A stretch of 32,000 bases of DNA, taken from contig CP017966.2 of NCBI GenBank assembly GCA_002813105.2, positions 728,312 to 760,311 on the forward strand, written 5' to 3'. Under the pieces are notes generated by a model. It worked only from the letters and a program-made list of their open reading frames with translations. It made no database searches and had not been told where the DNA came from. Positions 1 through 29,323 of the stretch are shown one piece after another. The stretch comes from Methanosarcinales archaeon Met12. GTDB taxonomy: Archaea; Halobacteriota; UBA148; JAJOKI01. The position numbers and the translations under genes were made by a program. The stretch's first letter is position 1; every line of letters starts with the position of its first letter.

Positions 1-125
1 GGAAAGGCGTCGATGTCGTTAGAGTTATAAGAAGCTTTGATCCGTGCGTGGGATGTGCAGTTGCTGTCCATATGGGTAAGCGAATAGTTAAACACGAGTT
101 ACTTCCGTTCGCGGTACCGCTGTAA
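1..125 (+). CDS. [NiFe]-hydrogenase large subunit, C-terminal end (partial; gene continues upstream of the window)
   Basis: Frame 3 translates to KGVDVVRVIRSFDPCVGCAVAVHMGKRIVKHELLPFAVPL-stop (stop at 123-125). RSFDPCxxC is the conserved C-terminal Ni-ligand cysteine pair of [NiFe] large subunits. It is followed by a short tail of the kind removed by the maturation endopeptidase. The ORF is too short to appear in the ORF track. Confidence 0.55.
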   Translation, partial: KGVDVVRVIRSFDPCVGCAVAVHMGKRIVKHELLPFAVPL

Positions 126-590
126 CTCCTTCAAAATGAGTTCAACCGCCCTATGGACAGCGGTCTCAACCTCCTGGCTTAATACTTCACCCAGTGTAAC
201 TTCCACAACTTCGCAGCCAATAACGACAATCGTAGAAGGTAGAGTGCCAATTGCCTTAGCGAAGAGGAGGAGCTCTTCTAACTTGGCTTCATGAATACTG
301 AGGGGAAGTGAACTCCTCGCATCTTCAGGCTTTAGTTTTTCTATCTGTCCGGCCCCAATTTCTATTCGATAAATCGTCCCTGGTTTTCCTCCTTTCTTGA
401 CAGCATCAACAAAGATGACAAACTTATAGTCATCAAGGTCTGGTGCAAGTGTCACGCCACAGAGTCCAACATCTCTAACCTCGACGTCCTCGGGCAGGTC
501 CCTCGTCGTTAGCGCCTCGACGACCCTTGGACCGAAACCATCGTCTCCCATATACTTGTTCCCAATGCCTGCCACGAGGATTTTCTGCAT
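99..590 (-). CDS. hydrogenase maturation endopeptidase (HycI/HybD/FrhD family)
   Basis: 163 aa. KILVAGIGNKYMGDDGFGPRVV at the N-terminus, plus FVDAV and SIHEAK, match the GxGN..GDDG, Asp and His signature of this protease family. It lies next to a hydrogenase large-subunit 3' end. Confidence 0.9.
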   Translation of the reverse strand: MQKILVAGIGNKYMGDDGFGPRVVEALTTRDLPEDVEVRDVGLCGVTLAPDLDDYKFVIFVDAVKKGGKPGTIYRIEIGAGQIEKLKPEDARSSLPLSIHEAKLEELLLFAKAIGTLPSTIVVIGCEVVEVTLGEVLSQEVETAVHRAVELILKELQRYRERK

Positions 591-14828: not shown

Positions 14829-16037
14829 ATGAAGCAGATTACATCCATTGCAAAAATACCTGAAAAAGTGACGATCCCGTTGCAGCAACATGTTGGTGTG
14901 GAAAACAGATCTCTGGTAATTGTTGGCGACGTGGTGAAAGTTGGTCAAAAGATTGGCGAAAGCGAATCGGGCATTTCACCGGTCCACTCCAGCGTCTCTG
15001 GGAAGGTTATTGAAATTTCCAAGCATCCTCACCCTTTTTATGAAAACACCCCGACTATAATTATCGAGCCGAATGGGAAGGACTCCTCTATTGAATTCAA
15101 AGCAAAGGATTATTCTCGGCAGGGAAGGGAACAGATTATAGAAATCATAAAAGAGGCAGGAATCGTTGAGTCTGGCATCCCTGTTCACACCAAGTTGAAC
15201 CTGTCAGATGTGGTCATCTTGAACGGCATGGATGAACCCCCATACGTGGCGATGAACCATGCACTCATGCTGGATTTTCCTGACGAAATAATAGAAGGAT
15301 TAAAAATATTGATGAAAGCTACTGGAGCATCGCGTGGTCTTATCGGAATTGACATTAGGGATTCTGATGTAATCAATCGCATGAACAGGGCAGTGGTTGA
15401 CGACTCAAACATAGGAACGGTTTCGTTAAAAACCACGTATGTGCAGGGCATGGAGGGGCTTTTTGCCAAAGCCGTCGTCAGAAAGGAACTGTCGCATGGA
15501 CAGCAGATATCCAACGCCAGCACGATGACCGTTACCGTTGGAACTGCGAAGGTGGTGTATGATGCGGTGTGCACAGGCAAGCCCATGATCGAGACGGTCA
15601 TTACCGTTTTGGGGACAAAAAAATCACAAAACGTATTGGTGAAGATTGGAACTCCAGTGAGAGATGTAATCAGGCATTGTGGGGGCTATAGTGGTGAGCC
15701 AAAAAAGATCATCATCAACGGGCCGATGACAGGAATGGCCCAGTATACGGATGAGGTGCCAATCGTCAAGGGGACATATGGGGTATTCGTCCAGTATGAA
15801 GGGGACGTTTCAACAGTAGAGCCAGGACCATGCATCAATTGCGCCAAATGTATCGACGTATGCCCGGTGAATTTACTGCCGAACATGCTGGTAGCGTTTG
15901 CGGGTGATGCCAGGTTTGATATGTGCGAGAATTACAATATATCTGCCTGTGTGGAATGCGGCAAGTGTGCATATGTATGCCCGTCCAAGATACCAATAGT
16001 GCAACTGATAAAATACGCAAAGGGGTGGATTAAGTGA
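14829..16037 (+). CDS. rnfC: Rnf complex subunit C (divergent)
   Basis: 402 aa. It has the N-terminal RnfC barrel (IPLQQHVG...VHSSVSGKV) and two ferredoxin motifs, CINCAKCIDVCP and CVECGKCAYVCP. It is first in the gene order rnfCDGEAB. Confidence 0.85.
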   Translation: MKQITSIAKIPEKVTIPLQQHVGVENRSLVIVGDVVKVGQKIGESESGISPVHSSVSGKVIEISKHPHPFYENTPTIIIEPNGKDSSIEFKAKDYSRQGREQIIEIIKEAGIVESGIPVHTKLNLSDVVILNGMDEPPYVAMNHALMLDFPDEIIEGLKILMKATGASRGLIGIDIRDSDVINRMNRAVVDDSNIGTVSLKTTYVQGMEGLFAKAVVRKELSHGQQISNASTMTVTVGTAKVVYDAVCTGKPMIETVITVLGTKKSQNVLVKIGTPVRDVIRHCGGYSGEPKKIIINGPMTGMAQYTDEVPIVKGTYGVFVQYEGDVSTVEPGPCINCAKCIDVCPVNLLPNMLVAFAGDARFDMCENYNISACVECGKCAYVCPSKIPIVQLIKYAKGWIK

Positions 16038-16849
16038 GCGTGGTCGTATCCGCACCGCCACACATCAAAGAAGGTGCATCAGCCAAAAAAATGGTGTGGG
16101 ACGTGATTATTGCGTTGCTTCCTGCAGTAGCAGCGTCGGTGCACTTTTTCGGGCTCCAGGCACTGACCATCATCTCGACAAGCGTATTGGCGGCGGTTTG
16201 TACAGATGGCATTATTCAAAAAATGCGTTTGAAAAAGGTGACCATTACAGATGGCAGCGCCGTGGTCACTGGATTGCTGTTAGCACTGCTTCTCCCATCG
16301 AATGTGCCGTTGTGGGTCCCCATCGTCGGAGCATTCGTCGCCGTGGCAATTGCAAAACACGCCTTCGGGGGTTACGGCTCCAATATATTCAATCCTGCGC
16401 TGGTAGGATGGGCATTTTTGACCATGGCATGGCCCATGCACATGGCAATGGATGTCGCAAGACTGGCGGATATACCGCCAGTTGTGTTGTTGGTCTGTGC
16501 GGTATTTTTATTTTTGTTGAACAGGGGATACATTAAGTGGCAAATCTCCGCAGCCTATCTGATAACCACTGTATCGCTGATGGCACTATTCACCATAGAT
16601 ATTTCCCGCATCTTCATCGGCATCTTCATACTTGGCGTATTCTTCATGGCCACCGACCCTGTGACGACCCCTGTAACTAAAAAAGGCAGGTTTGTTTTCG
16701 GGATCGGATGTGGGATATTGACGGTGATATACGGGTTATATGGCAGTTACGCTGAAGGTGTGGGTTACTCAATATTATTGATGAACTCTGTTACGCCATT
16801 GATAGATAGATTTACAAGGCCAAAGCCACTTCGGGAGGATAAACCATGA
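16034..16849 (+). CDS. rnfD: Rnf complex subunit D (short form)
   Basis: 271 aa. SAPPHIK, GGYGSNIFNPALVGWAF, FFMATDPVTTP and YSILLMNSVTPLID are RnfD/NqrB blocks. Confidence 0.85.
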   Translation: MSVVVSAPPHIKEGASAKKMVWDVIIALLPAVAASVHFFGLQALTIISTSVLAAVCTDGIIQKMRLKKVTITDGSAVVTGLLLALLLPSNVPLWVPIVGAFVAVAIAKHAFGGYGSNIFNPALVGWAFLTMAWPMHMAMDVARLADIPPVVLLVCAVFLFLLNRGYIKWQISAAYLITTVSLMALFTIDISRIFIGIFILGVFFMATDPVTTPVTKKGRFVFGIGCGILTVIYGLYGSYAEGVGYSILLMNSVTPLIDRFTRPKPLREDKP

Positions 16850-17367
16850 GGGAAGCAATGGGAACGATAGTGAGATTGACCCTCATCACAATGATAGCTG
16901 CAGGCGCATTAGGCATAACCCACGAAATAACGGAAATGCATATTGCAGTCAATAACGAACTTGAGATAATATTCTCAGAGCTTATGCCGGGAGCTGTCCA
17001 GTTTAGACCTGTGCTCGATATGGACAATGAAATAATTTATTTTAAGGCATACGACGATGGAGGAATGCTGATTGGATATGCCTTTGTTTCGAGTAGGGAG
17101 GGATATTCTGGTCCTATAAAAGTCGCTGGAGTGATTGATTTGAACTACCGGGTCGTTGCTACGACGATTATAAAACAGACTGAAAATCCAGGGCTTGGAG
17201 ATAGAATAACAGCGCCTCAGTTTCTGAATCAATTCGCCGGCATATCTGCAGAAGAATTGCACTTATCGCCATATGGCGAGATCGATGCCATTACGGGCGC
17301 CACCATATCCTCTCAGGCGGTTGTAGATGCCATAAGGGAAAAAATAATGGAAATCGAGAGGCGATGA
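16846..17367 (+). CDS. rnfG: Rnf complex subunit G (FMN-binding)
   Basis: 173 aa with an N-terminal TM helix. TENPGLG and the flavinylation motif DAITGATISS are present. Confidence 0.85.
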   Translation: MREAMGTIVRLTLITMIAAGALGITHEITEMHIAVNNELEIIFSELMPGAVQFRPVLDMDNEIIYFKAYDDGGMLIGYAFVSSREGYSGPIKVAGVIDLNYRVVATTIIKQTENPGLGDRITAPQFLNQFAGISAEELHLSPYGEIDAITGATISSQAVVDAIREKIMEIERR

Positions 17368-17368
17368 C

Positions 17369-17971
17369 ATGAGCGAAAAAAGCTACGCGCACGAATTCAA
17401 AAAGGGCATACTAAAAGACAATCCAGTTCTTTGTTTATTGCTTGGCTTGTGCCCGTCATTGGCAGTGTCCACCTCCATAGAGCTTGCGCTTGGTATGGGT
17501 GCCGCCGTTATTTTCGTGCTGACGGCGTCCAACCTCATCATCTCCCTATTGCGAAGGCAAATTCCTGTTGTAGTGAGGCTTCCGTCGTTCATCGTGGTCA
17601 TCGCCACCTTCGTCACCATTGTGGATATGACGATGTCGGCATTTCTGCCGCCACTGCACAGAGCACTGGGCATATATCTCCCACTGATCGTGGTGAATTG
17701 TATAGTCCTCGGCAGGGCAGAGGTATTTGCATCGAGGAACCCGCCAGCGCTGTCCACGATAGATGGTTTGGGGATGGGCGTGGGATTCACGCTTGCACTG
17801 ACGTTAATTGGAGGCATCAGAGAGTTGTTCGGCACGGGGGAGATATTTTTTATGGGACACACCCTCCTGCAGGTCAATATTGAGCCTGCCGTGCTCATGA
17901 TACTCGCACCAGGGGCATTCTTCGTGATTGGTTTGCTCCTCTGGTTGATCAATCTATTAAAAGACAGGTGA
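17369..17971 (+). CDS. rnfE: Rnf complex subunit E
   Basis: 200 aa polytopic protein. NPVLCLLLGLCPSLAVS and IYLPLIVVNCIVLGRAE are RnfE/NqrD signatures. Confidence 0.9.
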   Translation: MSEKSYAHEFKKGILKDNPVLCLLLGLCPSLAVSTSIELALGMGAAVIFVLTASNLIISLLRRQIPVVVRLPSFIVVIATFVTIVDMTMSAFLPPLHRALGIYLPLIVVNCIVLGRAEVFASRNPPALSTIDGLGMGVGFTLALTLIGGIRELFGTGEIFFMGHTLLQVNIEPAVLMILAPGAFFVIGLLLWLINLLKDR

Positions 17972-17977
17972 TTAAAA

Positions 17978-18556
17978 ATGGAGAACATACTCGCTATAAT
18001 ACTGGGTGCAATTTTTATTAACAATTTTGTTTTGACCAAATTCCTTGGATTGTGCCCTCTTTTTGGGGTGAGCAAGGATACCAAAAGCGCTGTGGGAATG
18101 TCGCTCGCGGTCATCTTCGTCATGACGCTTGCCACAGCGGCTACATGGCTCATTTATACCTATATGTTGACTCCATTGAACATCAGATTCCTACAAACGA
18201 TATCCTTCATCCTGATAATCGCCACATTGGTTCAGTTGATTGAACTCATCATCAGGAAACACAGTCCACCATTGTACCGGTCGTTGGGGATATATCTACC
18301 CTTAATAACGACCAACTGCGCAGTATTGGGGGCTGTACTGCTAAACATCAGAGGAGGGTATTCCTTCGTTGAAGGTATCGTGTTCGGCACCAGTTCCGGT
18401 GTTGGATTTGGCATGGTACTACTGATTATGTCGGGAATACGGGAGAGGCTGGAGCTATCCGATGTTCCTAAATCTTTAGAAGGCGTGCCCCTCGCGTTTA
18501 TCACCGTCGGGATACTGTCCATCATATTCGTGAGCTTTTTCGGGGGTCTATTATGA
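17978..18556 (+). CDS. rnfA: Rnf complex subunit A
   Basis: 192 aa polytopic protein. NNFVLTKFLGLCPLFGVS and IYLPLITTNCAVLG are RnfA/NqrE signatures. Confidence 0.9.
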   Translation: MENILAIILGAIFINNFVLTKFLGLCPLFGVSKDTKSAVGMSLAVIFVMTLATAATWLIYTYMLTPLNIRFLQTISFILIIATLVQLIELIIRKHSPPLYRSLGIYLPLITTNCAVLGAVLLNIRGGYSFVEGIVFGTSSGVGFGMVLLIMSGIRERLELSDVPKSLEGVPLAFITVGILSIIFVSFFGGLL

Positions 18557-19350
18557 TGAGCGGATTGATAATAAACGCGATAATCGCATTGAGTGTGTTG
18601 GGGATTATATGTAGTGCTGTTTTAGTATGGGCTGCTAAGAAATTCGCGGTTATGACGGACCCACGGGTGGAAAAAGTATTGGAGGTCCTGCCAGGTATAA
18701 ACTGCGGCGCCTGTGGATTCCCATCATGTTATGATTATGCAGAGCAAGCGGTCAGTGGAAAGGCCGCGGTTGGTCTCTGCACCCCTGGTGGGGAAGAGGT
18801 GGCAGAGAAAATGGGAAACATCCTTGGAGTATCCATAGGGGAAATGGGGAGAAGGGTTGCACTTCTTCAATGCGCTGGCGGCATAAGGTCTGACGATAAA
18901 TTTCAGTATGATGGTGTGAAGAGCTGCAGGGCCGCTGCGTTAATAAAAGGGGGCGGAAAAGCCTGTGCATATAATTGTTTAGGATACGGTGACTGTGCAA
19001 ATGTGTGCCCTGTCGATGCGATTACAATCGGCGAGGATGGCCTGCCCATGATAGATGAACAAGTGTGTGTTGGATGTGATTTGTGCGTCGACGTGTGCCC
19101 AAAAGACATTTTGACGGTGATTAGCAGGGATAAACAAACTCATGTACTGTGTTCGTCGCGCGACAAGGGGGAGTACGTAAGGAGTATTTGTGAAGTGGGT
19201 TGTATCGGATGTGGCATTTGCGTAAAGGTATGTCCTTTCAAGGCAATAACGATTAAAGACAATCTGGCCGTAATCGATTCAGAGTTATGCACTGATTGCG
19301 GCATATGTGTTGAGAAATGTCCCCAGAAATGTATCAAATCGAGGGTATAA
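18553..19350 (+). CDS. rnfB: Rnf complex subunit B (polyferredoxin)
   Basis: 265 aa with an N-terminal TM helix. It has LPGINCGACGFPSCYDYA plus several CxxCxxCxxxCP clusters. Confidence 0.9.
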   Translation: MMSGLIINAIIALSVLGIICSAVLVWAAKKFAVMTDPRVEKVLEVLPGINCGACGFPSCYDYAEQAVSGKAAVGLCTPGGEEVAEKMGNILGVSIGEMGRRVALLQCAGGIRSDDKFQYDGVKSCRAAALIKGGGKACAYNCLGYGDCANVCPVDAITIGEDGLPMIDEQVCVGCDLCVDVCPKDILTVISRDKQTHVLCSSRDKGEYVRSICEVGCIGCGICVKVCPFKAITIKDNLAVIDSELCTDCGICVEKCPQKCIKSRV

Positions 19351-19355
19351 TAGCT

Positions 19356-20303
19356 ATGAAATCGATTAGTAGAAGGCAGTTTATAAAGGGAGGTGTTGCC
19401 ATTGCAATGACGTTTTTAATGGGCAGCAAGCTCCGACTGTATGGAATTGGCGAGGAATCGCCGCACGTAATAGAGGGCACGCGCAACATAATGGGTACAT
19501 CTGTGGCGGCAAGCATAATACATCATGATGTGGATGTGGCGAAAGAGGCGATGGCCCTTGCCTTCAACGAAATGTATAAAATCGATGACCTGATGAGCGT
19601 CTACAGGGCAAACAGCGAGGTTAGAAGCCTTAACGAAAGTGGGTTTTATGAGGGTGCGAGCGCTGACACCATACGGGTCATCGAGAGGGCGAATCATTAC
19701 TCCAGGCTGAGTGGCGGCGCATTTGCCATCACTGTTTTGCCCATCATGACAGGTATTCGATTTACCAGAAGCACGTTGGAACTGGCCAATTACGAGAACC
19801 TTCTCATCGGGAATGGTAACATCGGGTTCAAAAAGGCAGGTATGGGCATAACGTTGGGAGGAATTGCGAAAGGATACGCCGTGGATAGGGCGATCGAGGT
19901 TTTAAGGCAGAACGGTATAGAACGCGCCCTGATAAATGCGGGCGGCGACATCAGGACCATCGGCGGCAGGACCGCAGAAGTGCCATGGAGAATTGCCTTA
20001 CGAGACCCAGACAACAGGAAGGAGCGCGTCACCGTCATCGAGCTTTGCGATAAAGCAATTGCGACCAGCGGAAACTATGAGAGATTCCATATCGTGAACG
20101 CCAGGACAGGGTGCGTTGCCCAAGAAATGATGAGCGCAACCGTGATTGCTGAAAATGCGATGGATGCTGATGCGCTGTCCACCACCATATTTTTGCTTGG
20201 AGTGGAAAAGGGCATGGAACTGGTGGAGAGGCTGAGTGGTGTAGAGGCGCTGGTGATAACGAACGATAGAAGAATATTGAGGTCAAGCGGGTTTCAGTAT
20301 TGA
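19356..20303 (+). CDS. apbE: FAD:protein FMN transferase (ApbE family) with twin-arginine signal
   Basis: MKSISRRQFIKGGVAIAM is a Tat-type signal, and GGIAKGYAVDRA is the ApbE block. The start is chosen at Met14 of the ORF (19356), just after the rnfB stop at 19350. Confidence 0.85.
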   Translation: MKSISRRQFIKGGVAIAMTFLMGSKLRLYGIGEESPHVIEGTRNIMGTSVAASIIHHDVDVAKEAMALAFNEMYKIDDLMSVYRANSEVRSLNESGFYEGASADTIRVIERANHYSRLSGGAFAITVLPIMTGIRFTRSTLELANYENLLIGNGNIGFKKAGMGITLGGIAKGYAVDRAIEVLRQNGIERALINAGGDIRTIGGRTAEVPWRIALRDPDNRKERVTVIELCDKAIATSGNYERFHIVNARTGCVAQEMMSATVIAENAMDADALSTTIFLLGVEKGMELVERLSGVEALVITNDRRILRSSGFQY

Positions 20304-21287: not shown

Positions 21288-21360
21288 AAAACGTTTAAAG
21301 CCTAAAAACGATAAGGTCATGGTAAGATGATGAGCAAGACGAGCTAAGTTGATCGTTGAG
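21288..21360. repeat. junction repeat, copy A
   Basis: AAAACGTTTAAAGCCTAAAAACGATAAGGTCATGGTAAGATGATGAGCAAGACGAGCTAAGTTGATCGTTGAG begins 10 nt after the toxin stop. Its 3' core overlaps the stop of the minus-strand HEPN gene. Confidence 0.7.
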
Positions 21361-21781
21361 ATAGATTCATACTATTATATCTTGTTCGTAACTGATTGAT
21401 GAGTGAAAAGATCTCAGCTATAAATTCCTTTCCTGTTTTTACATCAAGCGTCTTTCCATAATAATTGATCTTGTTTCTTATCTTCCTGAATTTATCAAAT
21501 TTTTCAGAAAGCGTTTCCATACCCATATAATCCTCGAGGAAATATGTCACGCATTTATGGGAATATACCTTGAATCCCTCTGATGTTATGATGGCCTGAA
21601 CGACCTCTAGTAGTGCCTGATATGCTTCACTTACTAAAATTGCAGAATTTTCTTCTGTCAATCGGATATTCTCGATAAATTTGATCCTGGCGTCTGCCAT
21701 GCCTTGTAGTGATTTCGCTCTTTGCTTGTCCACAAATGAGTGTCTGGCATCACCGGACTCCAAACAATCCTGCCAACTCAC
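21344..21781 (-). CDS. HEPN-domain toxin partner of the upstream nucleotidyltransferase
   Basis: 145 aa, all-helical, with FRKIRNKINYYG (R-x4-like HEPN motif region). It has a 4-nt overlap with the MNT gene. Confidence 0.7.
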   Translation of the reverse strand: MSWQDCLESGDARHSFVDKQRAKSLQGMADARIKFIENIRLTEENSAILVSEAYQALLEVVQAIITSEGFKVYSHKCVTYFLEDYMGMETLSEKFDKFRKIRNKINYYGKTLDVKTGKEFIAEIFSLINQLRTRYNSMNLSQRST

Positions 21782-22314
21782 CTAAACACCTCTAACTGAC
21801 CTGAAATTACGATGCCATTCAATATGTTGTTCACCAATTCTGGGCTTTGCTTTTTTACTCTTTCAAACCCCTCTTTATCCATGACCAATTGCTGTATGCT
21901 TCTATTCATTTTTTTTTCAAAATCAGAAACATCCACTTCTTTTTTCTTTTCCGTTAGCACGAAGATGTCAACATCGCTTTTTTTCATGTCTTTTCCCCTG
22001 GCAGCAGAACCAAAGAGGATTATCGTCGGATATAGAAATTCCTCTTCTAAAAAAGAAATGAATCCCGTATCTTTGAGGCGTTGGATCATGTGAGATATCT
22101 TATAATCCCTGAATTTTTCTGACTCTTGGTCCCCCCGATATAGTAGATAGCCTCTTTCCTTTTTTTCCAATAAGAACTTCTCTGCCACCAATTCAGTTAA
22201 ATATTTCTTTGCAGTCCTAGGAGATATGTCCAATAACCTTGCAATTTCTCTAAGATGGAACCATTGACCTGGATCTTCAATGAATATTTCAAGTATGTTT
22301 AGTTTTTTACACAC
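21778..22314 (-). CDS. winged-helix + minimal nucleotidyltransferase (MNT) antitoxin
   Basis: 178 aa. FHLREIARLLDISPRTAKKYLTELV is an HTH, and LFGSAARGKDMKKSDVDIFV is the GSxxRG..SDxD NTase motif. The start codon is GTG. Confidence 0.85.
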   Translation of the reverse strand: MCKKLNILEIFIEDPGQWFHLREIARLLDISPRTAKKYLTELVAEKFLLEKKERGYLLYRGDQESEKFRDYKISHMIQRLKDTGFISFLEEEFLYPTIILFGSAARGKDMKKSDVDIFVLTEKKKEVDVSDFEKKMNRSIQQLVMDKEGFERVKKQSPELVNNILNGIVISGQLEVFR

Positions 22315-22316
22315 AC

Positions 22317-22332
22317 GTTTACTTTTGTAAAC
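22317..22332. promoter_or_regulatory. palindrome between the TATA box and start of the wHTH-MNT gene (putative auto-operator)
   Basis: GTTTAC-TTTT-GTAAAC lies immediately upstream of the GTG start. On the minus strand it is preceded by AATATTTAAAC. Confidence 0.35.
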
Positions 22333-22550
22333 ACCTGTTTAAATATTTTTCTCTGTATTTTCACATAAGCAACCCATCAGAAGTTTAGGAAAAAAGAGTG
22401 ATAAAATATGGTGAAATGGTGCCTTACACAATAACTTACAATTTACACGTTTCAAAAAGCAAGAAATGGCTAACGCTGAAAATAGATAGCACCATCATGA
22501 ATTTTGTCGATAACTTTAAATAATGCCGCTCTTACTATTAATTGTCGGTG

Positions 22551-25894: not shown

Positions 25895-26092
25895 ATGGTG
25901 AAAACTACTGTGATTCTAAAGGATGAAATACACGAGATATTGGTTGAGAGATTCGGAAGAAGAAAGATATCCGAAACCATCAACAAGATTCTCGAAAAGA
26001 ACCTGTTCAGGACGAAAAAAAGCATGTTCGGCATCGACCCCTGGCTCACCACCGAAGGACTTAGAGATGAGGAGGAGCATGAAGGTCTTTGA
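25895..26092 (+). CDS. vapB: VapB-type antitoxin
   Basis: 65 aa. KTTVILKDEIHEILVERFGRRKISETINKIL is RHH-like. It overlaps the PIN gene by 14 nt. Confidence 0.7.
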   Translation: MVKTTVILKDEIHEILVERFGRRKISETINKILEKNLFRTKKSMFGIDPWLTTEGLRDEEEHEGL

Positions 26093-26441
26093 CTCCTTTG
26101 CATGGATAGAGTACTTTGCCGGCACTGAATGTGGAATGAAAGTAAAGAAAGTCATCGACGATGTGGAGATAATTTATACGCCTTCTGTCTGTCTTACTGA
26201 GTTCAAGGCGAAGTATCTAAGGGAGGGAAGAGATCCTAGTAAGAGGGTTAATTTTATGGAAAATAGAAGTGTCATCACACCGATCGACAAGGAGATTGCG
26301 TTAAAGGCTGCAGATATGAAGATTGAGTATAAATTGCATACTATCGATGCCTTGATATACGCAACGGCATCGGTCAAGAGAGGCAAGCTTATAACTGGAG
26401 ATGCACACTTTAAGGATTTACCAAACACAATGATGATTTGA
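26079..26441 (+). CDS. vapC: PIN-domain ribonuclease toxin
   Basis: MKVFDSFAWIEYF..., TIDALIYATA and ITGDAHF are PIN blocks. GAGGAGGAG lies just upstream of ATG 26079. Confidence 0.85.
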   Translation: MKVFDSFAWIEYFAGTECGMKVKKVIDDVEIIYTPSVCLTEFKAKYLREGRDPSKRVNFMENRSVITPIDKEIALKAADMKIEYKLHTIDALIYATASVKRGKLITGDAHFKDLPNTMMI

Positions 26442-27570: not shown

Positions 27571-28129
27571 TATATATCTCAGCACTCTCCTTCCTGGATG
27601 CCAGCGGGGTATATGGTTTTACAAAGCCGAAATATTTCCTGACATCATTAAAGAAGTCCGAGAACATGTCGCCTTGAAATACCTTCACCACAAAATTTCC
27701 ACCAGGTTTGAGTATCTCTACGGCAATATTCAACGCAGAATTGGATAAGTCGATAGAGCGTGCATGGTCCAGACTCCAGTTGCCTGAGAGGTTTGGCGCC
27801 ATATCAGAGATGACCACATCTGCGCCGCCTGTCTTCTCGATAATCCCCTTGATTTTTTCAATCATGGCAGGGTTGGTCACGTCTCCCCCGAGAGTTTCCA
27901 CTCCTTCGAGGGGGGCGATTTTTTGGATATCGATGCCCAGGACAAAACCGCCAGATACCTCCTTTGCAACCTGGAGCCATCCCCCTGGAGCGGCACCAAG
28001 ATCGACCACTGTAGCGCCCCTCTTGATTAGCTTGAACTTATCATTGATCTGCTGGAGTTTGTACGAAGCCCTGGATCGATATCCATCTCTTCTCGCTTTA
28101 TGGTAAAAATGGTCTTTACGGCGCGGCAT
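27521..28129 (-). CDS. rlmE: 23S rRNA (uridine-2'-O)-methyltransferase RlmE/FtsJ
   Basis: 202 aa. YRSRASYKL, VVDLGAAPGGW, VISDMAPN and the VVKVFQG motifs are present. Confidence 0.9.
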   Translation of the reverse strand: MPRRKDHFYHKARRDGYRSRASYKLQQINDKFKLIKRGATVVDLGAAPGGWLQVAKEVSGGFVLGIDIQKIAPLEGVETLGGDVTNPAMIEKIKGIIEKTGGADVVISDMAPNLSGNWSLDHARSIDLSNSALNIAVEILKPGGNFVVKVFQGDMFSDFFNDVRKYFGFVKPYTPLASRKESAEIYIICKGFFRSPPAGHSS

Positions 28130-28178
28130 AGATTAAATAAGTGTAACTATGGTGATTTTAAGTTTATGGAGTTCATCA

Positions 28179-28299
28179 TGCTCCGGTCGGGATTTGAACC
28201 CGAGTCTTCGGCTTTCTTCGCCCTTTTTGGTCAAGCTTTTTGCTTGCAAAAAGGTTGCTCGAAAGGCCGGAATGATTGGCCGGACTACACTACCGGAGC
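28179..28299 (-). tRNA. tRNA-Glu(UUC) with a 46-nt canonical (37/38) intron
   Basis: The minus strand reads GCTCCGG-TA-GTGTAGTCCGGCCAATCAT-T-CCGGC-CTTTCG / intron / A-GCCGA-AGAC-TCGGG-TTCAAAT-CCCGA-CCGGAGC-A. A bulge-helix-bulge can be drawn (CUUU pairs with GAAG, with 3-nt bulges at both junctions). There is one C-A mismatch at 27:43. Confidence 0.85.
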
Positions 28300-28331
28300 A
28301 AAGGTTTTGATATATTTTATCGGTGAACCTA

Positions 28332-28696
28332 TGGGCCCGATGCGATTTGAACGCATGACCGCTCGGTGTCTCCCACCAACCTGCAAACAGGTTGATCATT
28401 TGACCCGTTTTCGCTCCGCTTCAACGAGTCGCGCCGTTCCAACCTGCAAACAGGTTGATCATTTGACCCGTTTTCGCTCTGCTTCAACGAGTCGCGCCGT
28501 TCCAACCTGCAAACAGGAGTCTCTACTTCGTAGAGACCCTCTCACTGCAGAGCGGTGAGCAGGTTGATCATATCTCTTTATGTTTGGTCCTACTGAGCGA
28601 GCATATGTGAGCGAATGTAGGACGTTTTTGTTCAAACTTTTTATTAAAAAGTTTGGTTATGAGCCGAGCGCTCTAACCAGACTAAGCTACGGGCCC
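28332..28696 (-). tRNA. tRNA with CAU anticodon (Met or Ile2) interrupted by a ~290-nt intron at 37/38
   Basis: Exon 1 (28696-28658) is GGGCCCG-TA-GCTT-AGTCTGGTTA-GAGC-G-CTCGG-CTCATA. Exon 2 (28367-28332) is A-CCGAG-CGGTC-ATGCG-TTCAAAT-CGCAT-CGGGCCC-A. All four stems pair perfectly once 28368-28657 is removed. A TATA-like AATATAT lies 10-20 nt upstream, with the same spacing as for tRNA-Glu. Confidence 0.75.
28376..28517. repeat. 63-nt tandem direct repeat, 2 full copies + 16-nt partial third copy, inside the tRNA intron
   Basis: The units start at 28376, 28439 and 28502. The two full units differ at one position (ctccgcttc vs ctctgcttc). A further 12-nt echo (caggttgatcat) lies at 28560-28571. 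Confidence 0.9.
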
Positions 28697-28741
28697 GTGA
28701 GACCAAAATATATTCTTCCATCACTTAAACCTAAGCCAGTT

Positions 28742-29323
28742 CTATGTCGATTTTTCTAAACGAGCAAACATTCGCCTTATATATCTGGCTTTGGCGCTTT
28801 TGCCTGTTTTCCTGAGCAGCGCGCCATCTCGCACTTTGATCGTCATTATTTTGAAGTAATTTTTGTTGAAATGCTCGACGTTTCCGACCACAAACTCTCG
28901 CTCTCCTGGAACAGGCAGGTCGATTGGTTCGGTACGCTTACCGGATTGCAGAGATATTTTCACCACCACTTCGTCGACAACCTTTGCCCAAATCGTTTTG
29001 ATCGACTCTGCATTAGCGCATCTGACTCTTTTATTCCCTGGCAACTCAATGGACGTGACCTGTACCACGCTTGGTTTATCGTCTTCATCGATTATGAACT
29101 CGTCACCGATCGTCACCTCGTTCTGACCTAATAGCTCTATCTTTTGTACTGCGGACGTATCGTGTTTTGATATGACAACCTTTATCGATATATTTTGAGG
29201 CGCTGATGGGGAGGCCATATGGGTGGTTTCACAAGCATCGCACTTAACCAAATCCTTCTTTAATATATGGTGGCTCACAGGATGTTCGGGCGAGCATGTT
29301 GGGCATATTACCTCTATCTGCAT
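28742..29323 (-). CDS. conserved archaeal zinc-finger protein (COG1326 / HVO_0476-like)
   Basis: MQIEVICPTCSPEHPVSHHILKKDLVKCDACETTH carries two CxxC pairs at the N-terminus. The start is taken at Met21 of the ORF. The family name is from memory. Confidence 0.65.
   Translation of the reverse strand: MQIEVICPTCSPEHPVSHHILKKDLVKCDACETTHMASPSAPQNISIKVVISKHDTSAVQKIELLGQNEVTIGDEFIIDEDDKPSVVQVTSIELPGNKRVRCANAESIKTIWAKVVDEVVVKISLQSGKRTEPIDLPVPGEREFVVGNVEHFNKNYFKIMTIKVRDGALLRKTGKSAKARYIRRMFARLEKST

Follow-up and report, generated by a model that had tools for sequence, protein, structure and literature searches.

A tRNA(CAU) gene of Methanosarcinales archaeon Met12 with an intron of at least 290 nucleotides, probably enlarged by hairpin accretion

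How long can the intron of an archaeal tRNA gene become, and does the additional RNA serve any purpose? This question is raised by a tRNA(CAU) gene on the minus strand of a 32,000-nt stretch of the genome of Methanosarcinales archaeon Met12 (assembly GCA_002813105.2, contig CP017966.2, positions 728,312 to 760,311), called here the window and providing all coordinates given below, in which the two halves of the gene are separated by 290 nt. Haloferax volcanii carries canonical-position introns of 75 nt in tRNA-Met(CAU) and of 103 nt in tRNA-Trp, and the tRNA-Trp intron of Haloferax, Pyrococcus and other Euryarchaeota contains a box C/D guide RNA. Introns bordered by relaxed bulge-helix-bulge (BHB) motifs, HBh' and hBH, are found in archaea possessing (alpha-beta)2 or epsilon2 endonucleases. 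The documented archaeal tRNA introns range from 11 to 129 nt, with medians of 12-25 nt, and those of eukaryotes from 6 to 133 nt (PMC4090602). Our literature search yielded no report of an archaeal tRNA intron longer than 129 nt, which is not proof of absence. The intron of the window is best classed as an ordinary canonical-position archaeal tRNA intron with three departures, namely its length, the fast turnover of its modular interior and the degeneracy of the 5' half of its BHB, and it calls for no new mechanism. The reading that we consider probable on the sequence evidence is that of a functional tRNA(CAU) gene whose EndA/BHB-type intron, at position 37/38, would have grown by accretion of hairpins and would consist mostly of passenger RNA.

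The gene itself is intact. Its 5' exon (28658..28696, minus strand, 39 nt, tRNA positions 1-37) reads GGGCCCGUAGCUUAGUCUGGUUAGAGCGCUCGGCUCAUA and its 3' exon (28332..28367, minus strand, 36 nt, positions 38-73, CCA not encoded) reads ACCGAGCGGUCAUGCGUUCAAAUCGCAUCGGGCCCA. When introns were allowed, ARAGORN reported over the whole window a tRNA(cat) at c[28332,28696] with i(40,290), and from the hand-spliced exons it drew a perfect 75-nt cloverleaf, again tRNA(cat). The preliminary description of this locus, made from the sequence alone, had proposed precisely such a cloverleaf once the insert is removed, as well as an exceptionally long intron at the canonical 37/38 position, and both proposals are thereby confirmed. 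The helices and loops that it listed are all present: acceptor GGGCCCG/CGGGCCC, D stem GCUU/GAGC (with one G.U), anticodon stem CUCGG/CCGAG, anticodon loop CUCAUAA and T arm AUGCG-UUCAAAU-CGCAU. The anticodon CAU, A37, A38 and A73 are found as well. Detection depends on the program: the intron mode of ARAGORN called two tRNAs only in the 32-kb window, both real, its default mode called no tRNA anywhere in the window, and the Rfam tRNA model missed the tRNA(CAU) gene at the gathering threshold and, over 27900-29000, at E up to 10. The same model gave 50-58 bits to the short-intron orthologues (loci L001, L003, L008 and L009), with lower scores for longer introns.

The closest relatives share the locus. 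Around the FtsJ gene the neighbourhood is syntenic, with the same tRNA(CAU) just upstream of a tRNA-Glu; the FtsJ of the window shares 94% identity with its counterpart in 'Methanocellales archaeon MAG-838' and 70-76% with those in other Methanocellales metagenome-assembled genomes (MAGs). The comparison of orthologous loci, which the preliminary description had suggested, revealed an intron at the identical site in the window and in seven further lineages. Exon 1 is identical at 39 out of 39 positions in the eight lineages, and exon 2 differs at two positions at most, both unpaired (no more than two differences among seven lineages). Since the window and its relatives agree at no more than 81-87% of the 4-fold codon positions in the flanking genes, the identity of the exons points to purifying selection on an expressed tRNA. 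Upstream, the motif TTTAAGT is invariant in all eight regions, within variable flanks. The conserved TATA-like box GGTTTAAGT (28723..28731, minus strand), whose 3' end lies 27 nt upstream of the tRNA 5' end, is the putative promoter of the gene. Because the exons appear to be under purifying selection and the relatives carry an intron at the same site, the locus is best regarded as a functional gene, neither a pseudogene nor the scar of a mobile element.

The intron spans 28368..28657 (minus strand), 290 nt as assembled, which is a minimum; the orthologues have introns of 28-206 nt at this site. The trinucleotide ACC occurs at both intron borders, so that removal at 38/39 to 40/41 would yield the same mature tRNA as removal at 37/38; in a geometric scan, BHB-like geometry was obtained at 37/38 only. 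Read along the RNA, the interior is a succession of hairpins. It begins with H1 (28633..28655, minus strand, CAAACUUUUU-AAU-AAAAAGUUUG), part of the ancestral core, which encloses a T5 tract and recurs in L001 and other relatives with both arms differing in length. The added module A (28587..28623, minus strand, GUCCUAC...GUAGGAC) comes next; it is absent from L001, L003, L008 and L009 and has in SRR27899010 an identical stem and a different loop. It is followed by X' (28502..28570, minus strand), the first copy of a hairpin called X, whose loop bears the insert M2 (28517-28559, minus strand), as it does in SRR27899010. M2 measures 43-45 nt, forms two hairpins itself and includes GUCUCUAC-GAA-GUAGAGAC. 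Two 63-nt units (28376..28501, minus strand), absent from all relatives, come next; each consists of a 40-nt hairpin module, Y, and then of a fresh 23-nt copy of X. Tandem Repeats Finder counts 2.3 copies of the 63-nt unit over 28376-28517. As the two units are 98% identical, their amplification would be recent. The last X (28376..28398, minus strand, UGAUCAACCUG-UUUG-CAGGUUGG) adjoins the 3' splice site and is conserved from the 28-nt intron of L003 onward.

There are thus three X hairpins, each with UGAUCAAC ahead of it; on the RNA strand X reads UCAACCUG-UUUG-CAGGUUGG, with seven Watson-Crick pairs and one U.G, and H1 is probably its paralogue. The preliminary description had listed most of these structures correctly: CAAACTTTTT-AAT-AAAAAGTTTG, GTCCTAC...GTAGGAC and GTCTCTAC-GAA-GTAGAGAC are present as written; the repeated hairpin exists with UCAACCUG rather than CCAACCUG as its 5' arm on the RNA strand, and GACUCGUU/AACGGGUC exists with one U.G among its pairs. 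The 365-nt precursor folds with a predicted energy of -146.9 kcal/mol (z = -7.4 against dinucleotide shuffles). With a threshold of at least 7 bp and loops limited to 3-8 nt, the whole 32-kb window contains 11 distinct hairpins that pair perfectly, four of which lie in the tRNA(CAU) intron and one in the intron of the neighbouring tRNA-Glu. Hairpins closed by a C-GAA-G triloop recur in independent inserts of the window (28519-28537), the L009 intron and the tRNA-Glu intron of L003, as CUACGAAGUAG, CUGCGAAGCAG (twice) and GAUCGAAGAUC; all are reminiscent of GCGAAGC, a mini-hairpin of great stability.

The relatives provide a graded series of lengths: 28 nt in L003, 56 nt in L008, 62 nt in L001, 101 nt in L009, 152 nt in SRR9822619 and 206 nt in SRR27899010 (the latter two from adjacent Logan unitigs overlapping by 27 nt and 30 nt, respectively), at least 103 nt in ERZ3623437 / SRR6347718, represented by their two ends only, and at least 290 nt in the window. 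Hairpin X amounts to nearly the entire minimal intron of L003. The 62-nt intron of L001, ACCAAACUUUUACAUAAAAGUUUGAUCAAAAUGAUCAACCUUUUUGAAGGUUGGUGGGAGAC, is made of H1, a linker, hairpin X and the tail UGGGAGAC; it corresponds to the core of the window intron without the extra modules, and what the window adds to it is hairpin A with its linker, M2 and the two Y-X units. In SRR27899010, A and M2 have stems identical to those of the window and different loops, the Y-X array is missing and two additional modules are nested in H1. These two modules are shared by SRR9822619, which lacks A, M2 and X and contains three tandem H1-like units with a common base, CAAAC...GUUUG, and differing upper stems, each perfectly complementary. 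L009 has, relative to L008, one more block of 45 nt, which forms two perfect hairpins.

Pairing is preserved throughout this turnover. Hairpin X keeps its seven pairs through U-A, U.G and C-G at one position and U-A and G-C at another, the two arms of H1 vary jointly (U5/A5 versus U4/A4), and the motif GAUCAAC at the base of X is kept in four lineages. Counted by eye between the window and SRR27899010, none of about 40 stem nucleotides in the shared modules has changed, against about 16 substitutions, plus several indels, in about 105 aligned nucleotides of loops and linkers.

In the reading that we favour, EndA would make its 5' cut after A37 and its 3' cut inside the A-C|A bulge, and an RtcB-type ligase would join the exons and circularize the intron. 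Distance is no obstacle to this reaction, EndA cutting BHB motifs whatever the interval between them, as in the 1.6-3 kb rRNA precursors, with circular excised RNAs (PMC7714728). The ancestor would have possessed a short intron of 30-60 nt, equivalent to about one stem-loop X and a tail pairing with the anticodon loop. Growth would have resulted from the duplication of the intron's own hairpins, from the insertion of new, perfectly self-complementary hairpins in loops and linkers, and from the tandem amplification of the 63-nt unit bounded by copies of X; at the DNA level, slippage, unequal exchange between X copies and template switching are the presumed processes, and the growth seems to have been fast and recent. 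Template switching is able to create and maintain perfect hairpins (PMC8794818), and the stems may be kept paired either by selection or by a mutational process of this kind. Such additions would be tolerated because EndA presumably reads only the structure of the exon-intron junction and because each added piece, folding on itself, should not compete with that junction. For these two reasons we infer that the extra RNA is mostly a constrained and otherwise neutral passenger rather than a device.

On its 3' side, the junction closely resembles a canonical BHB. In the unconstrained minimum free energy (MFE) structure, GAG (28370-28372) in the intron tail UGGGAGAC pairs with exon C32-U33-C34 (28661-28663) and prolongs the anticodon stem, and the 3' border falls inside a 3-nt bulge, A-C|A (28369-28367), between helices of 7 bp and 3 bp. 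This bulge and the outer helix are perfect, and the 3' half (28367..28375, minus strand) was found in both the whole-precursor MFE and the geometric scan. The preliminary description had proposed as a test that a BHB-compatible fold should appear in a thermodynamic model, and the 3' half does so without any constraint. Of the relaxed BHB that it drew, the overall motif and the ACA bulge at the 3' junction hold; the clean UAA bulge at the 5' junction does not, A35 facing a G. Two or three surplus nucleotides (U, G, G) lie on the strand opposite the 5' site, which the MFE places in an internal loop or multiloop, and an alternative helix, ACCAA/UUGGU, leaves a 3x2 internal loop at this half. The window therefore displays a relaxed, HBh'-like motif. 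The strict motif is present in L008 and L009 (4/4 central pairs, h 6, h' 2) and absent from L001, the window and SRR9822619.

Several observations weigh against the favoured reading. The window lacks a strict hBHBh' motif, its central helix having three pairs out of four (A35 opposite G) and its inner helix, in register, consisting of a single C-G pair, and SRR9822619 is devoid of any inner helix. The alpha4 and alpha2 EndA enzymes of Euryarchaeota are reported to need a strict 3-4-3 motif (PMC3239211, PMC7714728). Either the EndA acting on the window is more tolerant than expected, or the junction is aided by non-canonical pairs or by the body of the tRNA; a phmmer search of the window and the related loci, with an M. 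jannaschii EndA sequence as query, found no EndA. The intron also contains a T5 tract (28645-28651, minus strand). Archaeal RNA polymerase can terminate at oligo-T tracts, and some premature termination could occur inside the introns; a T5 tract is likewise seen in the tRNA-Glu intron (28248-28252, minus strand), and L003 has T6. The length of the intron is uncertain, a copy number of the 63-nt repeat above that of the 290-nt assembly being possible. Finally, the conservation of stems above that of loops could also mean that the hairpins are functional.

The alternative explanations differ in the part of the evidence that they account for. That the locus would be a disrupted pseudogene or an assembly artefact, such as a chimeric join, is suggested by the imperfect BHB and by a repeat that breaks short-read assemblies and coincides with a gap in one scaffold; it is nevertheless very improbable. 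The independent NCBI scaffold BBPE01000903.1, from the same organism (L081/L084), matches 177 nt at the start of the intron and 92 nt at its end without a difference; in place of 21 nt of the window's array it contains 175 Ns (L081 2496-2670). In four read sets, four Logan contigs (L082, L083, L214 and L215) agree with the last 37 nt of the intron and begin at window position 28404, the point from which a k-mer is unique to the last unit; a further NCBI contig (L217) ends within hairpin A. The contigs of this organism that stop inside the intron are thus five, all independent, and nearly all short-read contigs recovered from relatives also break within their tRNA(CAU) intron. The repeat is real in several data sets and its 2.3 copies are a lower bound. 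The caveat of the preliminary description concerning an assembly error was apt insofar as contigs and gap break at the repeat, and the doubt is confined to its copy number and does not extend to the existence of the intron, the exons being under apparent purifying selection in eight lineages that all have an intron at the site, with a conserved promoter-like box. Taken at face value, the 175-N gap adds about 154 nt to the window and therefore implies an intron of about 440 nt; the true length could be about 420-480 nt. One of the Logan contigs, L215, carries a spurious open reading frame (ORF) of 79 aa called across the tRNA genes and the intron (3-239, minus strand), and gene callers may annotate such ORFs as hypothetical proteins.

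Another possibility is that mobile DNA, in the form of one or several elements resembling miniature inverted-repeat transposable elements (MITEs), entered a pre-existing short intron. The modules do look like discrete insertions when compared with L001, M2, lodged in the loop of X, is accompanied by what may be a 3-nt duplication (CUG/CCU), and similar GCGAAGC-type hairpins occur independently in the L009 intron and the L003 tRNA-Glu intron. We hold this explanation, raised in the preliminary description, to be improbable: no terminal inverted repeats span any module, the modules share no sequence family, and the extra length comes mostly from the intron's own parts, the largest block being a tandem duplication with the ancestral hairpin X among its parts. 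The intron sequence does not recur in the window, in a 36-kb scaffold of the same organism or in about 600 kb from 80 related loci; scans of IMG/VR with the 3' exon, the GAA hairpin, hairpin X and module Y returned nothing or chance matches only, and blastn of the intron against plasmid (PLSDB) and phage collections gave no match. A metagenome scan with a 17-mer of module Y, GCGCGACTCGTTGAAGC, a pattern too short for the purpose, hit at least 120 loci, those listed being all fortuitous matches of 17-27 nt. A self-splicing intron of group I, of the kind known from the anticodon loops of bacterial tRNA-Ile(CAU), tRNA-fMet and tRNA-Leu, would fit the location and the size of about 290 nt (PMC8450103), and can be set aside almost entirely. 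At E up to 10, a cmscan of 27900-29000 retrieved from Rfam the tRNA-Glu and spurious mir-208 matches only, with no Intron_gpI; the orthologous introns of 28-101 nt are below the size of a ribozyme, simple hairpins and tandem repeats make up the sequence, and in this archaeal host the adjacent tRNA has a BHB intron.

It is also unlikely, if less so, that the intron is selected for itself, as a large, stable circular RNA that binds a protein or serves as a decoy, sponge or scaffold, the tRNA gene being its vehicle. The very strong predicted structure, the stems unchanged while loops and linkers diverge, the covariation in X and the GAUCAAC motif conserved in four lineages would all be expected of such a molecule, and excised archaeal introns are circular (PMC7714728). 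The content of the modules is however not conserved: L001, the nearest relative by FtsJ (94%), is without the extra modules, and SRR9822619 is even without X. The covariation of X is equally explained by its place beside the splice site, the near-identity of the array units indicates recent amplification rather than long maintenance, and no Rfam family, C/D boxes or K-turn consensus was found. In a particular form, this proposal would make of the intron a fast-diversifying, selected circular RNA of at least 290 nt, and possibly about 450 nt, composed of hairpins that bind proteins or RNA and set free from the precursor of the only AUA-decoding tRNA; we give it a slim chance. If it were true, the turnover of modules would be the trace of an arms race or of regulatory tuning, for instance by titrating the splicing or modification machinery or by shielding the tRNA gene from integrating elements, and the intron would be the first large functional intron-derived circular RNA in a methanogen besides the C/D box RNAs.

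A number of more specific functions were considered for the intron and rejected. A box C/D guide RNA was discarded, neither a C box (RUGAUGA) nor a D box (CUGA) being found in the window intron or in six orthologous introns. The preliminary description had likewise seen no clear C/D pair, and its count of three ATGATCA motifs and no CTGA in the intron is accurate; UGAUCA is a C-box look-alike with one mismatch. The Rfam/Infernal check that it recommended matched no family to the intron, and the K-turn (kink-turn) consensus is absent, the Y hairpin, inspected by eye, offering a possible tandem G.A and no 3-nt bulge. Nested introns were discarded on the basis of a geometric BHB scan of the whole precursor, which detected no motif at the module borders; the best internal candidates score 12, in the range of spurious matches in other sequences. 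As regards protein coding, the longest frame in the intron has 65 codons and is not conserved, and a 152-aa ORF (28100-28558, plus strand) overlaps the tRNA-Glu and an exon and is spurious. The group I intron was dismissed on the Rfam result and the small size of the orthologous introns given above.

How does the intron, read as an EndA substrate enlarged by hairpin accretion, compare with known systems? With the canonical EndA introns it shares the 37/38 site, the pairing of the anticodon loop with the 3' end of the intron, a 3-nt bulge, closed by the C32 pair, as the 3' cleavage site, the short introns of its orthologues and a neighbouring tRNA-Glu with a regular BHB intron. It differs from them by its size of at least 290 nt, by an interior that is a mosaic of perfect hairpins and a 63-nt array, by a degenerate 5' BHB half (central A.G, inner helix of one bp or none) and by a length that varies 10-fold among relatives; lengths of 62 to at least 290 nt are found among relatives whose flanking genes diverge by just 13-19% at silent sites. 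Like the C/D-bearing tRNA-Trp intron, it is long, resides in a euryarchaeal tRNA gene and could deliver a separate RNA; unlike it, it has no C/D box in the window or in the orthologues and its content is not conserved among relatives. The relaxed junction and the rapid turnover within a clade recall the transposed and duplicated introns of Thermoproteales and the relaxed-BHB introns, whereas in the window the position is fixed and canonical, the interior changes and no copies of the intron were seen at other sites. The host, an uncultured Methanocellales-like methanogen of the Euryarchaeota, in which strict motifs are expected (PMC3239211), further separates it from both. Perfect stems appearing in one step, changes affecting both arms (U5/A5 versus U4/A4 in H1) and the insertion of new helices into older loops are also features of template-switch hairpins and rRNA expansion segments; template switching and expansion-segment growth are general models, which have not been described for tRNA introns.

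The intron extends the range documented for archaeal tRNA introns more than twofold, and it implies that a protein-based splicing pathway is apparently expected to handle several hundred nucleotides of structure inside a tRNA. Together with its orthologues it forms a rare stepwise natural series, from 28 to at least 290 nt, of how a structured RNA grows, and its degenerate junction predicts a relaxed EndA specificity in a euryarchaeal lineage. There is also a practical side, the gene being invisible to the Rfam tRNA model and to ARAGORN by default and its intron breaking the short-read assemblies examined: because detection fails and assemblies break, genomes of this group will seem to lack this CAU tRNA, probably their sole decoder of AUA, and will be fragmented at the locus.

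Which amino acid does this tRNA carry? The GGGCCCG acceptor, C4-G69, U12-A23, C29-G41 and the CUCGG/CCGAG anticodon stem correspond to what we take to be the body of tRNA-Ile, unlike that of elongator or initiator tRNA-Met. From this resemblance, we regard the gene as quite probably that of the agmatidine-dependent, AUA-decoding tRNA-Ile2 rather than of elongator tRNA-Met. Searching the literature for this tRNA's sequence and for the determinants of TiaS produced nothing usable to separate Ile2 from Met, and the annotation of the intron-bearing CAU tRNA of Haloferax as tRNA-Met calls for caution with the Ile2 label (PMC7714728).

Downstream of the tRNA(CAU) gene lies a tRNA-Glu(UUC) gene (28179..28299, minus strand, exons 28260-28299 and 28179-28213; 44.4 bits with the Rfam tRNA model), which ARAGORN miscalled as tRNA-Arg(tcg) and which is probably co-transcribed with tRNA(CAU) or part of the same tRNA cluster. 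A BHB scan assigned to it a 46-nt intron with a canonical BHB (28214-28259, minus strand). This intron is absent from L001, L212 and SRR27899010 and measures about 35 nt in L008 and L009, about 60 nt in L216 and, with an insertion of two further perfect hairpins relative to the window, 95 nt in L003; with values from 0 to 95 nt across lineages, both its presence and its length are polymorphic among close relatives. The spacer between the two tRNA genes is 2-3 nt long in L001, L003, L008 and L009, 32 nt in the window (28300-28331), about 70 nt in L216 (1-443) and about 160 nt in L212 (1-430), where it contains nested perfect hairpins including GAUC-GAA-GAUC. Since the spacers vary and that of L212 bears hairpins, hairpin accretion appears to extend beyond the introns of the tRNA cluster. 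In other Methanocellales MAGs (L002, L004-L007 and L010), tRNA-Val(GAC) instead of tRNA(CAU) is found upstream of an intron-containing tRNA-Glu, and the pairing of tRNA(CAU) with tRNA-Glu is specific to a subclade.

The genes around the tRNAs encode Trm1, RlmE/FtsJ and a CPxCG zinc-finger protein, and a PIN-domain gene (25923-26441, plus strand) lies near the cluster. Further away, at 21344-22314 (minus strand), a nucleotidyltransferase gene (Polbeta/MNT-like) is followed by a small unannotated ORF, the two being possibly a toxin-antitoxin pair; a 20-nt tandem repeat of 2.3 copies (22295-22341) covers the 5' end of the nucleotidyltransferase ORF and part of what lies upstream of it. The window also contains a complete rnfC-D-G-E-A-B operon with apbE (14829-20303, plus strand), in a genome most closely related, among named ones, to Methanocellales MAGs, and upstream of this operon are cobamide salvage genes (cobT, cbiB, cbiZ and cobS) and a gene for a PGF-CTERM periplasmic-binding surface protein.

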